Positions 2,528 to 6,210 of a stretch of DNA of 24,000 nt are shown in pieces. The DNA lies in the NCBI GenBank assembly GCA_002471865.1, contig DKQU01000041.1, positions 23,340 to 47,339 on the forward strand. Reading direction: 5' to 3'. The DNA comes from Fidelibacterota bacterium UBA7300 (GTDB lineage: Bacteria; Fidelibacterota; Marinisomatia; Marinisomatales; UBA2128). A program made the position numbers and the translations under genes. Below the pieces are notes generated by a model. It ran no database searches, was not told the DNA's origin, and worked only from the letters and a program-made list of their open reading frames with translations. The stretch's first letter is position 1. Every line of letters begins with the position of its first letter.

Positions 2528-3370
2528 TTAGTTATTCTTTATTCGCGATAATCGTAAGATCTCCGGGGCATATTCAAAATGAATGGTATCAAAGTGGCTC
2601 CATTTTCCTCCCCAGACGAATCCATTTTTCTCAAATGCATCTATGACTGCTTGCGGGGGAGTCCACCGTTTTTCCAGCGGAATTAGATGCCACTCTTTAA
2701 TAAACGCAGTACTCCATTTCCAGTTGGCGTGTTTGCCATCATACGATTCGGGTACTAAGTCTAAAGCCAATCCATAGGAATGATGGCTGGCATTTTCAGA
2801 TCCGCGTACTTTTTTCTGTTGGAATGAATAGATAATTTTAAGGTTCTCAACAAAATCCTCAACTTCAACATTACTCTTTGCTGCATAAAAAATTTCTGTT
2901 TCCACTTTTCTCAATGCTTCCTCACAAAAATGGTTCATATATGCCTTATGATCTAAAAAAGGGACCCAATCGCACTGTTCTCTCAATAGAGTTTCCTTGG
3001 TACCGAAAACAAGATCCAGGAAATCTGAAGATCGCACTGGCATTTGCTGATATTTAGGAGGTTTTATCAGTTTGCCTAGAGGGTAATCGTAGAAGATTGA
3101 CTGATACCGGTTTTGAAACCTGAAACCCTCTTCAGTGAGCATCCTGCCGTTGCGGAAATAAACCCAGGTTTTGTTGATCAAGAAGGCTACGTCGTTATCC
3201 TTGGTTGTAGTTTCTTGAATGAAATCTCCGTACACTTCAAGCAAAACGGCAACTTCCGGGATGTCTTCCCACTTTGATGTAGTTTGTTCAAGCGGTGGGA
3301 AAGCTGGAGTTAGAAAACTTAAAACAATGAGAGGTGACAGGATGATTTTCCCTGATGAGATTGGGTTCAA
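2528..3370 (-). CDS. M15 family (VanY/LAS-fold) zinc metallopeptidase, probably exported
   Basis: SHHSYGLALDL (H-x6-D) plus WSHFDTIHFEY (distal His) form the LAS-type Zn signature of D-Ala-D-Ala carboxypeptidase-like M15 enzymes. The N-terminus is hydrophobic (IILSPLIVLSFLTPAFPP). Only a TTG start is available, and it overlaps the GNAT stop. Confidence 0.7.
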   Translation of the reverse strand: MNPISSGKIILSPLIVLSFLTPAFPPLEQTTSKWEDIPEVAVLLEVYGDFIQETTTKDNDVAFLINKTWVYFRNGRMLTEEGFRFQNRYQSIFYDYPLGKLIKPPKYQQMPVRSSDFLDLVFGTKETLLREQCDWVPFLDHKAYMNHFCEEALRKVETEIFYAAKSNVEVEDFVENLKIIYSFQQKKVRGSENASHHSYGLALDLVPESYDGKHANWKWSTAFIKEWHLIPLEKRWTPPQAVIDAFEKNGFVWGGKWSHFDTIHFEYAPEILRLSRIKNN

Positions 3371-3819
3371 ATTTTACCTTCCATAATGATATAATTGGAT
3401 TTATCCATTCCCAGTTTTCGGTAGGTCTCTTGAGCCGAGATATTAGATGTATCAACGTACAATCTAATTCCGCAAATATCTCGATTTTCTCTTACCATCT
3501 TCAGGACTGTTTTGTGGAGTTGGCGGTAGATTCCTTTGTGCCGAAAATCAGGTTTGACATACACGCTTTGTATCCACCAGAAGTTGCCATTCCGCCAATC
3601 GCTCCATTCAGTGGTGATCATCAGTTGTCCTGCGACTTGGCCGTCGGCTTCAGCCAGCAGATAGAATCCCTTTTTCGGGTCATCAAAAAGTTGGTTGACA
3701 CCTTTTGTGAGGGTATCGTCATCTAATAACTTATCTTCAGTCTCGAGTGCCATGGCCTTGTTGAATTTGACGATAATTTCTGCGTCTTGTAGTGTAGCTT
3801 TACGAATAGTTAGTTTCAT
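3367..3819 (-). CDS. GNAT family N-acetyltransferase
   Basis: 150 aa. Acetyl-CoA binding motif region VYVKPDFRHKGIYRQLHKTV (Q/R-x-x-G-x-G/A-like). Typical GNAT length and pattern. Confidence 0.8.
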   Translation of the reverse strand: MKLTIRKATLQDAEIIVKFNKAMALETEDKLLDDDTLTKGVNQLFDDPKKGFYLLAEADGQVAGQLMITTEWSDWRNGNFWWIQSVYVKPDFRHKGIYRQLHKTVLKMVRENRDICGIRLYVDTSNISAQETYRKLGMDKSNYIIMEGKI

Positions 3820-3853: not shown

Positions 3854-3885
3854 AACCTGACAGGTGTTCTTGTACCTGTCAGGTT
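3854..3885. other. Perfect 12-bp inverted repeat (AACCTGACAGGT / ACCTGTCAGGTT) with an 8-nt loop, between the TauE stop and the GNAT start
   Basis: Read directly from the sequence. A third copy of the core CCTGACAG lies at 3838-3845. No U-tract follows the hairpin on the transcribed (-) strand, so it is not a canonical intrinsic terminator. Confidence 0.6.
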
Positions 3886-3903: not shown

Positions 3904-4674
3904 TCATATCACTCCACTTCCAAGCCCGATGGAAAGGATAATTAGCATCACAGCTACTAACTTTTGGATTTGCTCCATGGTGACTTTTTCCACCAGTCGT
4001 TTACCAATGAACGCTCCCAAAAATGCTGCTGTACATCCAGTGATTATAAGAGGAATATTCTCGCTTTCCACTCCGGTATTATGACTGCTGTAAATCGCCA
4101 ACCGAGCCACATCAACCAGACAGGCGATGGTTACACCAGTTCCGATGAACTGCTCTTTCGTAAGTCCTGCATTTGCCAGAAAGGCACTTCGTAATGCACC
4201 CTGATGACCGGAAAGTCCCCCCATTAACCCGCTCACGGCTCCTCCAAGTGGAAGGAACTTTGAAGCGAATTGGAGCTCACGGAACCGCGGCAACAAATCC
4301 AGCATGGCGAATCCTAGAATCAGTACCGAGACTACTAGTTTAACAGCTTCTACGGTCATTTCTTTTCCCAGCCAGTTATAAGAATAGAGAGGTTCCAAAC
4401 CTGAGAGCTGAGTAAGAATCCACGCTCCGACAAATGCGAGAGTCATAGCAGGCAGTCCAAATTGCAGCAGGATACGATTCTTCCGATGTTTTCCAAAGAG
4501 TATAACCTTGAAAATATTGTTTGCCAGATGAACTACTGCTGTTGCTGCGATTGCAATCTCGATGGGGAAGAAAATGGCCATAGCCGGCATCAATAAAGTG
4601 CCGAGTCCAAACCCTGAAAAGAGTGTGAGTCCGGATACAACAAGAGCTACAGCAGCAATGAGAACATATTCCAT
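3904..4674 (-). CDS. TauE/SafE (DUF81) family anion exporter, polytopic membrane protein
   Basis: 256 aa, about 8 hydrophobic Gly-rich segments in a 4+4 arrangement typical of TauE/SafE sulfite/organosulfonate exporter-like proteins. The ATG at 4674 directly abuts the TAG of the upstream arsC (TAGATG), and a GGAG lies about 10 nt upstream. Confidence 0.75.
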   Translation of the reverse strand: MEYVLIAAVALVVSGLTLFSGFGLGTLLMPAMAIFFPIEIAIAATAVVHLANNIFKVILFGKHRKNRILLQFGLPAMTLAFVGAWILTQLSGLEPLYSYNWLGKEMTVEAVKLVVSVLILGFAMLDLLPRFRELQFASKFLPLGGAVSGLMGGLSGHQGALRSAFLANAGLTKEQFIGTGVTIACLVDVARLAIYSSHNTGVESENIPLIITGCTAAFLGAFIGKRLVEKVTMEQIQKLVAVMLIILSIGLGSGVI

Positions 4675-5025
4675 CTACAGAAGCTCCAATACTTTTTCTG
4701 TAGGACGACCAAGTATTGCAAAACTGCCTTTTACAGCTATAGGTCGCTCAATCAATCTTGGATGAGCTGCCATCCGTTGAAAAAGTTCATCATCATCCTC
4801 AAGTTTATCCTTAAGCCCCAACTCTTTGTATTCAGATTCCCGCTTGCGAATGAATTGATTCGGTCTCAGCCCCATCATCTTAGCCAGTTTCCGGAGTTCC
4901 TCTTCCGTCGGCGGTTCATCAAGATACTTGATCAACTTCGGTTCAATCCCATTATCCTTGAGAAGCTTCACGGCTTCCCGGCTCTTTTTTCATCTGGGGT
5001 TGTGATAGATTACCATTTCACTCAT
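4675..5025 (-). CDS. arsC: ArsC-family (glutaredoxin-type) arsenate reductase with an in-frame TGA at the catalytic Cys position; candidate selenoprotein (116 aa counting Sec)
   Basis: Manual translation of the minus strand from ATG 5025-5023 gives MSEMVIYHNPR-TGA-KKSREAVKLLKDNGIEP..., continuous with track ORF 4675-4971. The TGA (4992-4990) replaces the Cys of the HNPxC(G/S)xSR motif (Cys12 of plasmid R773 ArsC, as recalled). The Arg triad equivalents are present (FIRKRE, IERPIA, LGRPTE). GGAGATAAAG sits directly before the ATG. A stem-loop lies 13 nt after the TGA. Confidence 0.75.
4960..4979 (-). promoter_or_regulatory. Candidate bacterial SECIS stem-loop downstream of the in-frame UGA
   Basis: The mRNA reads UGA-AAAAAGAGCC-GGGAAGC-CGUGAA-GCUUCUC. 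This forms a 7-bp stem (6 Watson-Crick pairs plus 1 G-U) with a 6-nt apical loop containing GU. The loop lies about 20-25 nt after the UGA, within the spacing usually described for bacterial SECIS elements. Confidence 0.5.
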
Positions 5026-5130
5026 CTTTATCTCCAAGTTAGTTTATGGCTAAAAAATAGCGATAAAGTTGTATGAAATGCCACTATCCATTGGAACTTT
5101 ATATTCTTTTTCTGAGTTATTCGGAAAGAA

Positions 5131-5187: not shown

Positions 5188-6210
5188 ATGAAATTTATAA
5201 AAAACGGCGTTGGCAGTTGGGTTTCCGGTGATCTTGCTATTGATTTAGGAACAGCCAATACTCTTATCTGGATGACAAGTAAGGGAATTGTAATCAATGA
5301 GCCGTCAGTGGTTGCTCGCAATATAAACGATGGAGAAATAGTAGCTGTGGGCAATGAAGCCAAAGATATGGTGGGGAAAACTCATCGTGAATTGGAAACT
5401 CTTCAACCACTAAAAGATGGCGTTATTGCAGATTTCACAATGACCGATGGGATGCTTCAAGGATTTGTCCGAAAAATCAATTTCAACAGAATTGCTCGTC
5501 CTAGGATGGTAATCTGTGTACCCAGCGGCGTGACGGAAGTAGAGCGCCGGGCAGTAAAAGATTCAGGAGAAAGAGCCAACGCTCGAGAGATTTTTCTGGT
5601 GGAAGAACCCGTTGCAGCTGCAATAGGGATTGGATTGGATATCAGCAAACCAGTAGGAAATATGATTGTTGATATAGGTGGAGGCACGACTGAAACTGCT
5701 GTTATCGCACTAAATGGAGTTGTTACCAAAGAAACTATCCCTGTAGCTGGTGAAAAAATGGATGAAGCAATAGTTCAGTGGTTCAGAGTTGAACACAAGC
5801 TTGAGATAGGTATTCCTACTGCCGAGAAAATTAAATGTTCTGTAGGTGCTGCCATGCGTATGAAGCAAACTTCTATTGCAGTTAAAGGTCGAGATCTCGT
5901 TTCAGGTATCCCCAAGACAGTTGAAATCTCTTCAGATGAAATCCGGCAAGCGCTGAAAGATTGTGTTACCCAGATTGTAGATGCCGTAAAACGAGCGTTG
6001 GAAAAAACTCCACCCGAGTTAGCGGTAGATATTCTGGATAGAGGAATTATCTTAACCGGTGGCGGAGCAAGCCTGAAAGGATTGGATCAAAATATTCGTG
6101 AACGTACAAATCTTGCTGCAAATGTTTCTGAATCACCCATGTTCGATGTTGTAAAAGGGACTGGCATAGTACTCTCAGATGTAAAGAAGTATGCGGATGT
6201 CCTTATCTAG
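5188..6210 (+). CDS. mreB: Rod shape-determining actin homologue MreB
   Basis: 340 aa. Motifs seen: DLAIDLGTANTLI, EPSVVA, MVICVPSGVTEVERRAV, EEPVAAAIG, VDIGGGTTE and GIILTGGGASLKGLD. These are canonical MreB/actin-fold phosphate and adenosine motifs. Confidence 0.95.
   Translation: MKFIKNGVGSWVSGDLAIDLGTANTLIWMTSKGIVINEPSVVARNINDGEIVAVGNEAKDMVGKTHRELETLQPLKDGVIADFTMTDGMLQGFVRKINFNRIARPRMVICVPSGVTEVERRAVKDSGERANAREIFLVEEPVAAAIGIGLDISKPVGNMIVDIGGGTTETAVIALNGVVTKETIPVAGEKMDEAIVQWFRVEHKLEIGIPTAEKIKCSVGAAMRMKQTSIAVKGRDLVSGIPKTVEISSDEIRQALKDCVTQIVDAVKRALEKTPPELAVDILDRGIILTGGGASLKGLDQNIRERTNLAANVSESPMFDVVKGTGIVLSDVKKYADVLI

Follow-up and report, generated by a model that had tools for sequence, protein, structure and literature searches.

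On the minus strand of the window, the 24,000-nt stretch of DNA that was analysed, a gene for an arsenate reductase-like protein of the ArsC family, interrupted by an in-frame TGA, is directly followed by a gene for a TauE/SafE permease (Table 1). The TAG stop of arsC and the ATG start of tauE are separated by 0 nt, the minus strand reading ...CTT CTG TAG/ATG GAA TAT, so that the contiguous stop and start described in the sequence-only reading of this DNA are indeed there, as is the GGAG that it had placed in the 3' end of arsC. Beyond tauE, the same strand carries genes for a GNAT acetyltransferase, an M15 peptidase and a P5C dehydrogenase, and the divergently oriented mreBCD-PBP2-rodA genes lie upstream of arsC. 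Family searches agreed with the earlier statement that arsR, arsB and acr3 are absent from the 24,000-nt window; at this locus arsC does not stand beside ArsB or Acr3 and ArsR, as it does in a canonical ars operon. The 84 nt that separate tauE from the GNAT gene contain an inverted repeat, which may mark the end of the operon or form a regulatory hairpin; it was not picked up in the terminator scan. More generally, scanning the window for promoters and terminators gave no signal beyond that expected from shuffled sequence, and no terminator was called at the arsC-tauE junction or behind the two genes. The palindrome CCTGACAGG after tauE was also considered as a repeated genomic element and rejected, its 11-mer occurring nowhere else in the genome.

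Table 1. Genes and sequence elements at the arsC-tauE locus (positions in the window)
Feature	Position	Strand	Description
arsC(Sec)	4675..5025	-	116 codons, U12-K-K-S15 (UxxS), glutaredoxin-fold ArsC family; TAG stop 4677-4675
tauE	3904..4674	-	256 codons, TauE/SafE (TSUP family) permease; ATG 4674-4672
GGAG within arsC 3' end	4684..4687	-	9 nt before tauE ATG
GGAG, putative Shine-Dalgarno of arsC	5032..5035	-	6 nt before arsC ATG
In-frame TGA, codon 12 of arsC	4990..4992	-	predicted to be read as selenocysteine
SECIS-like hairpin	4960..4979	-	7-bp stem GGGAAGC/GCUUCUC, CGUGAA loop, begins 10 nt past UGA
Perfect 12-bp inverted repeat	3854..3885	-	AACCTGACAGGT ... ACCTGTCAGGTT; no U-tract
GNAT acetyltransferase gene	3367..3819	-	next same-strand gene; directly 3' of arsC in tauE-less relatives (L013, L019)
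mreB	5188..6210	+	divergent from arsC; anchors synteny block mreB<>arsC-[tauE]-GNAT-...-P5C dehydrogenase

The arsC frame is open over its whole length only if the TGA, which is preceded by 11 sense codons, is read through; with the TGA taken as U, the product counts 116 residues and starts with MSEMVIYHNPRUKKSRE. Orthologues of arsC are present in 34 genomes of an order-level sample consisting of 60 relatives and the window's own genome (61 genomes), and their codon 12 is TGA in 20 and TGC in 14 of them. Support for the SECIS-like hairpin rests on the alignment, because the region folded as a single sequence does no better than shuffles (z = -0.18). Among 16 aligned Sec-type orthologues, 90% of the cells are paired versus 33-58% with the partner columns slid, the covariation score is reached by none of 500 shuffles, and three of the 16 sequences have U:A in place of a G:C pair of the stem, a compensatory double change that turns Ala into Ser and Leu into Ile in the protein. 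The loop reads CGUGNA in the alignment and contains a G. No Rfam family, and hence no curated SECIS or riboswitch, was matched in the window. The window's genome (1.55 Mb, 84% complete) encodes the machinery for selenocysteine insertion, with adjoining genes for SelA (513 bits) and SelB (413 bits) on contig C67, SelD (387 bits), itself with an in-frame TGA, on C19 and a tRNA-Sec on C111. Given the UGA at the Cys12 position, the covarying hairpin and this machinery, the earlier description of ArsC as a selenoenzyme holds, and selenocysteine at UGA12 is a well-supported prediction.

ArsC matches PF03960 at 65.1 bits (cut-off 24) and the NCBIfam equivalog TIGR00014, 'arsenate reductase (glutaredoxin)', at 129.8 bits (curated cut-off 106.05). 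Its residues 1-116 align without gaps to residues 1-116 of R773 ArsC (1I9D/1JZW), and U12 is assigned to the catalytic Cys12 position because this alignment is gapless; the Arg60/Arg94/Arg107 triad of R773 is retained as R60, R94 and R107. Arsenate is the predicted substrate. The highest-scoring PDB matches of ArsC are the YfgD-like proteins 3F0I (E 7e-31) and 3RDW (E 3e-28).

One Acr3 is encoded in the genome, on contig C35 (454 bits, cut-off 283), flanked on one side by a zinc-ribbon protein gene and then lgt, on the other by an Rce1-like gene and then lepA. The sequence-only reading had considered that a canonical ars locus elsewhere might explain arsenic resistance; the exporter of such a locus does exist on C35, but neither arsR nor arsC lies beside it. 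ArsB was not found in the genome, and the search of the genome for ArsR returned two weak HTH_5 matches, both outside the window. As a candidate for a second arsenate reductase, an LMW-PTP gene on C37 was evaluated and not counted, because its 132 bits fall below the Trx-type ArsC cut-off of 174. Across the 61 genomes, both ArsC and Acr3 occur in 13, ArsC only in 21, Acr3 only in 8 and neither in 19; the idea that ArsC tracks Acr3 in the order was rejected, Acr3 being present in 13 of 34 genomes with ArsC versus 8 of 27 without. Since the presence of ArsC does not track Acr3, a route from arsenate to Acr3 is itself an assumption, and the substrate of the ArsC-like enzyme may be something other than arsenate.

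These data bear on a first alternative, according to which the ArsC-like protein would be a YfgD-like thiol/selenol oxidoreductase of other function and the permease an unrelated neighbour. The two best PDB matches, themselves uncharacterised, point in this direction, as do the lack of an ArsC-Acr3 association across the 61 genomes and the gene context: ArsC and TauE were searched in these genomes, 20 arsC loci were fetched with the window genes mapped onto each, and an ars gene stands beside arsC at none of the 20. The passing of the curated TIGR00014 cut-off and the retention of all four catalytic positions in the gapless R773 alignment pull the other way, and we regard this alternative as possible, if on the unlikely side. 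Its core, that the enzyme acts on something other than arsenate, bears on every reading given below.

The gene order mreB<>arsC(Sec)-tauE-GNAT-...-P5C dehydrogenase recurs as a block in the genomes G000 (the window's own), G001 and G002 of family f1 and G024, G047, G010 and G036 of family f8, so that arsC adjoins tauE in 7 of the 9 genomes sampled of these two related families; an eighth linked locus (L037) comes from a further Neomarinimicrobiota MAG. Expressed over the order sample, the adjacency is found in 7 of 20 genomes with a Sec-type ArsC and in 0 of 14 with a Cys-type ArsC. G003, which belongs to the window's genus, has mreB<>arsC(Sec)-GNAT-M15 on one contig (G003:C96), with a 187-nt spacer at the place of tauE and with 77% and 96% identity to the window for arsC and mreB, respectively. 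Within family f8, G056 (contig G056:C145) has mreB upstream of arsC(Sec) and the GNAT gene 39 nt behind it, without tauE. No TauE match was found elsewhere in G003 or G056, genomes that are 94% and 92% complete. In G007 (family f5) only mreB<>arsC is left of the block; in families f2, f6, f9 and f14, arsC is followed by a gene for an Asparaginase_N-like protein of 163-166 residues or a GT2 glycosyltransferase, and elsewhere an aldo-keto reductase or EEP-family gene lies 3' of arsC. The gene-neighbourhood comparison that had been proposed as a check of the pairing finds it, in the order sample, only in families f1 and f8, ArsC orthologues in other families adjoining different genes. As to exporters, Acr3 is encoded in the pair-holding genomes G000, G001, G002 and G024, and neither Acr3 nor ArsB was found in the pair-holders G010, G036 and G047 (95-97% complete). 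When the relatives were searched for ArsB, families f1 and f8 gave no match, and the matches in other families were weak (about 50 bits). In G003 and G056, Acr3 and ArsB were not found either, and ArsC(Sec) thus persists there without any recognised exporter.

The permease itself matches PF01925 at 84.9 bits (cut-off 32.6) over profile positions 1-236 of 237, without a match to any NCBIfam model, and hydropathy, scanned crudely, points to about 7-8 hydrophobic segments, where a TSUP permease would be expected to have about 8 transmembrane segments in a 4+4 repeat. It is the sole TauE-family gene found in the genome, and its start codon and N-terminus align in 8 of 8 orthologues. With an alignment of the eight TauE orthologues as query and one genome per GTDB species as database, more than 580 relatives were retrieved, the best 80 of which share 47-57% identity and come from Ignavibacteriota, Bacteroidota, Thermodesulfobacteriota, Nitrospirota, Planctomycetota, Elusimicrobiota and others. 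Only two of these best 80 loci have ArsC within about 4 kb of TauE, both from f8-type Marinimicrobia of the linked clade. A phylum sample of 251 genomes holds a TauE orthologue in 14, and at none of the 7 loci in families f19 and f22 is ArsC beside TauE. Taken together (best 80 plus these 7), ArsC is absent from the surroundings of 85 of 87 TauE orthologue loci, the exceptions being the two members of the linked clade. A consistent partner of the TauE subfamily, sought as a clue to its substrate, did not emerge: about 150 neighbouring genes fall into 102 clusters, among them PadR, DUF190, NA37, cytochrome b561, glutathione peroxidase, YitT, GATase, ChrB_C (twice) and Tpt1, and the one large cluster, NA37 in Aquimarina, is specific to that genus. 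The neighbours of the TauE orthologues included no selenium gene, and sulfonate genes were found neither among them nor in the window. The two ChrB_C genes adjoin distant TauE orthologues and hint at oxyanion stress.

In a maximum-likelihood tree of 92 TauE sequences, the eight ArsC-linked copies form one clade (support 100/99) with f1 and f8 sub-groups, and the non-linked Marinimicrobia copies fall elsewhere. Because the linked TauE proteins form one clade, the arsC-tauE linkage has a single origin: it arose once and has been passed down by vertical descent along with flanking genes unrelated to it; at least two deletions, in G003 and G056, removed tauE and left arsC(Sec) in place.

The sequence-only reading had suggested for the pair a dedicated reductase-exporter module, in which ArsC(Sec) would reduce arsenate or another oxyanion and TauE would export the product, be it arsenite or an oxyanion of selenium or sulfur, replacing or supplementing Acr3/ArsB in this lineage. 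Such a module could explain why a tight operon was kept across two families with the tauE of this clade always behind arsC, it would provide G010, G036 and G047, which hold the pair without Acr3 or ArsB, with an arsenite exit, and it fits both the transport of small anions by the TSUP family (Pfam PF01925 description) and the ChrB_C genes next to two distant orthologues. A conserved module would, however, be expected to recur independently or to be retained whenever either gene is present, and neither is seen. Both genomes that deleted tauE kept arsC(Sec) and also lack Acr3 and ArsB; given the single origin, conservation of the pair amounts to shared descent of a block that includes the unrelated GNAT and P5C dehydrogenase genes; 85 of the 87 TauE loci lack ArsC, and the window's genome has an Acr3. 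Full-text literature searches gave no TauE-ArsC or TauE-selenium link by title or abstract. With its single origin, two losses of tauE and an ArsC-free context at nearly all TauE loci, the proposed module is weakly supported and we consider it unlikely.

Whether or not the two proteins work together, their genes are probably expressed together. In the eight linked loci the gaps between arsC and tauE measure 0, 0, 1, 46, 25, 1, 2 and 2 nt, and nowhere in the linked clade does tauE occur without arsC immediately upstream. Six of the eight junctions are thus of 0-2 nt, which is what a functional pair would also look like. Tight junctions are common in the window, where 9 of 19 same-strand junctions do not exceed 10 nt and two unrelated genes, those for GNAT and the M15 peptidase, have a 4-nt overlap; since they are so ordinary here, contiguity alone says little on shared function. 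Nor is the GGAG in the arsC 3' end a general feature: only the window copy and L015, at another position, have a GGAG before tauE, and the motif of the window is absent from G001 and G002 of the same genus, with their 0-1 nt junctions. The statement that both genes are almost certainly co-translated can therefore be kept in part. The abutting co-orientation is preserved in eight genomes and makes coupling reasonable, but the GGAG is not conserved and tight junctions are frequent. A stronger case than the window's GGAG comes from f8, where the tauE copies with gaps of 1-2 nt (L016, L017 and L037) start with TTG and have no GGAG or other Shine-Dalgarno motif, while a GGAG/GGAGG-type motif is kept upstream of arsC in most of 9 orthologous loci (L016 has GGGG... 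and L019 only AAGGAA). For this reason termination-reinitiation is a reasonable mechanism: arsC and tauE are probably co-transcribed, and tauE is probably translated by ribosomes that reinitiate after terminating on arsC. As a corollary of reinitiation, the output of tauE would depend on the decoding of UGA12 as selenocysteine.

Carried further, this dependence leads to a combined proposal, in which TauE would be a non-canonical exit for the product of Sec-ArsC, and the sole one in genomes without Acr3, with its synthesis gated by Sec decoding of arsC via termination-reinitiation; we hold this to be decidedly unlikely. That selenium gating is the point of the arrangement, ribosomes arriving at tauE only after UGA12 has been decoded and TauE perhaps moving selenium species, agrees with the 0-2 nt gaps, the TTG starts without GGAG in L016, L017 and L037, the missing GGAG in G001 and G002 and the Sec form of ArsC in 7 of 7 pairs of the order sample (none has the Cys form), but is very improbable in view of the GGAG at a workable distance that would allow the window's tauE to be initiated independently, the absence of this TauE orthologue from 13 of the 20 order-sample genomes that have a Sec-type ArsC, the lack of selenium genes among TauE neighbours and the position of most of the closest TauE orthologues in Bacteroidota, e.g. 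Aquimarina and Flavobacterium. Selenocysteine use is rare in Bacteroidota.

These alternatives exclude neither one another nor the reading that we prefer, to which we give a probability of roughly 0.6, namely that a known UxxS ArsC selenoprotein heads a lineage-specific operon into which a TSUP permease was inserted once, the permease being probably coupled to arsC yet functionally dispensable, with arsenite export plausibly via Acr3. In this preferred reading, arsC(Sec) and tauE would form the head of an operon particular to a lineage of marine Marinimicrobia (Fidelibacterota). ArsC would be an arsenate-reductase-like enzyme of the R773 type with a glutaredoxin fold, its catalytic Cys12 replaced by selenocysteine and UGA12 being decoded by means of the intragenic SECIS hairpin by SelA, SelB, SelD and tRNA-Sec. 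The gene for the TSUP anion permease would have entered its position in the common ancestor of the two related families and would since have descended along with the entire mreB<>arsC-tauE-GNAT-P5CDH block. TauE would not be an obligatory partner, as ArsC(Sec) presumably functions in close relatives that lack it, and arsenite formed by ArsC could leave the cell via the stand-alone Acr3 on the other contig. Because the arrangement arose once, was lost twice and is accompanied by an Acr3 elsewhere, it is probably a local one and not a new detoxification module, and we infer that a dedicated ArsC-TauE pathway is absent.

Should TauE nevertheless turn out to be a true partner, it would represent a new family of arsenite or oxyanion exporters, provide the first substrate clue for a large and mostly uncharacterised permease family and offer an example of downstream translation that depends on upstream selenocysteine insertion. 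In the preferred reading the locus is of use in another way, as a documented case that warns against inferring functional coupling from adjacent genes in a streamlined genome. For annotation, the full arsC frame corrects the usual call of a 98-codon fragment starting after the UGA. That this selenoprotein and Acr3 do not go together over the order bears on the real substrate of the ArsC-like enzyme.

When compared with known systems, the locus resembles a canonical ars operon (arsR-arsB/acr3-arsC) in that the window's genome encodes both a reductase of the ArsC family and an Acr3 exporter, and differs from it in that arsC and Acr3 lie on different contigs, without ArsR beside either and with ArsB not found. 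At the level of the enzyme, the glutaredoxin-coupled R773/E. coli ArsC and the window's ArsC coincide in position 12 and the three arginines when aligned, but R773 ArsC has Cys where the window's protein would have Sec, possesses a 25-residue C-terminal tail that is missing here and belongs to the arsRDABC/arsRBC operon type, whereas the window's arsC lies outside any such operon. Similarity is highest to the YfgD-like proteins of Vibrio cholerae (3F0I) and Yersinia pestis (3RDW), which share the HNPR(C/U)xKSRE motif, a length of about 117 residues and a chromosomal stand-alone context with the window's ArsC; unlike it, they carry Cys and have one extra residue inserted after position 53. The permease has the full-length PF01925 match, the size of about 256 residues and multiple putative transmembrane segments in common with TauE, the sulfite exporter of Cupriavidus necator, and SafE, a sulfoacetate exporter. 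In contrast to these transporters of sulfonate catabolism, it has no sulfonate-degradation genes nearby and is linked to an ArsC-family gene. The closest counterpart of the selenoprotein is the 'ArsC 1' UxxS family (pfam03960), described first from the Sargasso Sea by Zhang & Gladyshev 2008 (PMC2398784) and included as 'Arsenate reductase (ArsC) 1' in a 2022 review (PMC9312934), accounts that leave gene context and TauE unmentioned. Here as there, proteins of the same Pfam family with U-x-x-S at the catalytic position and a putative intragenic SECIS occur in marine uncultured bacteria, with Cys homologues in relatives. The window's ArsC, with its pfam03960 match, UGA in UxxS, SECIS-like stem-loop and Sec machinery, shows all four hallmarks of the family and no difference from it was found, so that it adds a further member, in a lineage-specific operon, to a selenoprotein family already known since 2008.

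In the 84-nt spacer between tauE and the GNAT gene, we found a perfect inverted repeat (see the table below), of which the arms AACCTGACAGGT and ACCTGTCAGGTT are separated by an 8-nt loop and which lacks a U-tract. A third, CCTGTCAGG-like copy lies in the same spacer immediately 5' of the GNAT ribosome binding site, and an 11-mer of the repeat occurs only once in the genome (G000). Since a related ACCTGTCAGGT precedes the GNAT gene in G003, a same-genus relative without tauE, the repeat element seems to be part of the GNAT 5' region. Further downstream, the GNAT stop overlaps the M15 peptidase start, which exemplifies the compactness of same-strand junctions in G000; no functional link between this overlapping pair is apparent.

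Coordinates of the features discussed
Feature	Location	Strand	Remark
Perfect 12-bp inverted repeat	window 3854-3885	minus	tauE-GNAT spacer
GNAT stop/M15 peptidase start overlap	window 3367-3370		4 nt
selD match	G000:C19:17967-18890		outside window; 387 bits
Acr3 arsenite exporter gene	G000:C35:17901-18890 (L008 6875-7927)		stand-alone
ChrB_C-domain genes	L036 4786-5223; L048 3362-3703		3' of distant TauE orthologues

The selD match of G000 contains one in-frame TGA, and SelD is therefore probably a selenoprotein itself.

The Acr3 gene is flanked on one side by an Rce1-like gene and then lepA, and on the other by a gene for a zinc-ribbon protein and then lgt, with neither arsR nor arsC beside it, and among 61 relatives from the order the presence of ArsC did not correlate with that of Acr3. 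Among the order's other families, several (f2, f6, f9 and f14; loci L020-L025 and L029) have, directly after arsC in its Cys or Sec form, a gene for a 161-166-residue protein matching the asparaginase N-terminal domain only (PF00710), which makes it a recurrent alternative neighbour. The ChrB_C-domain genes follow within 3-17 nt of two distant TauE orthologues, one from an unclassified bacterium and the other from a Planctomycetes MAG, and hint faintly that this TauE subfamily has an oxyanion-stress context.
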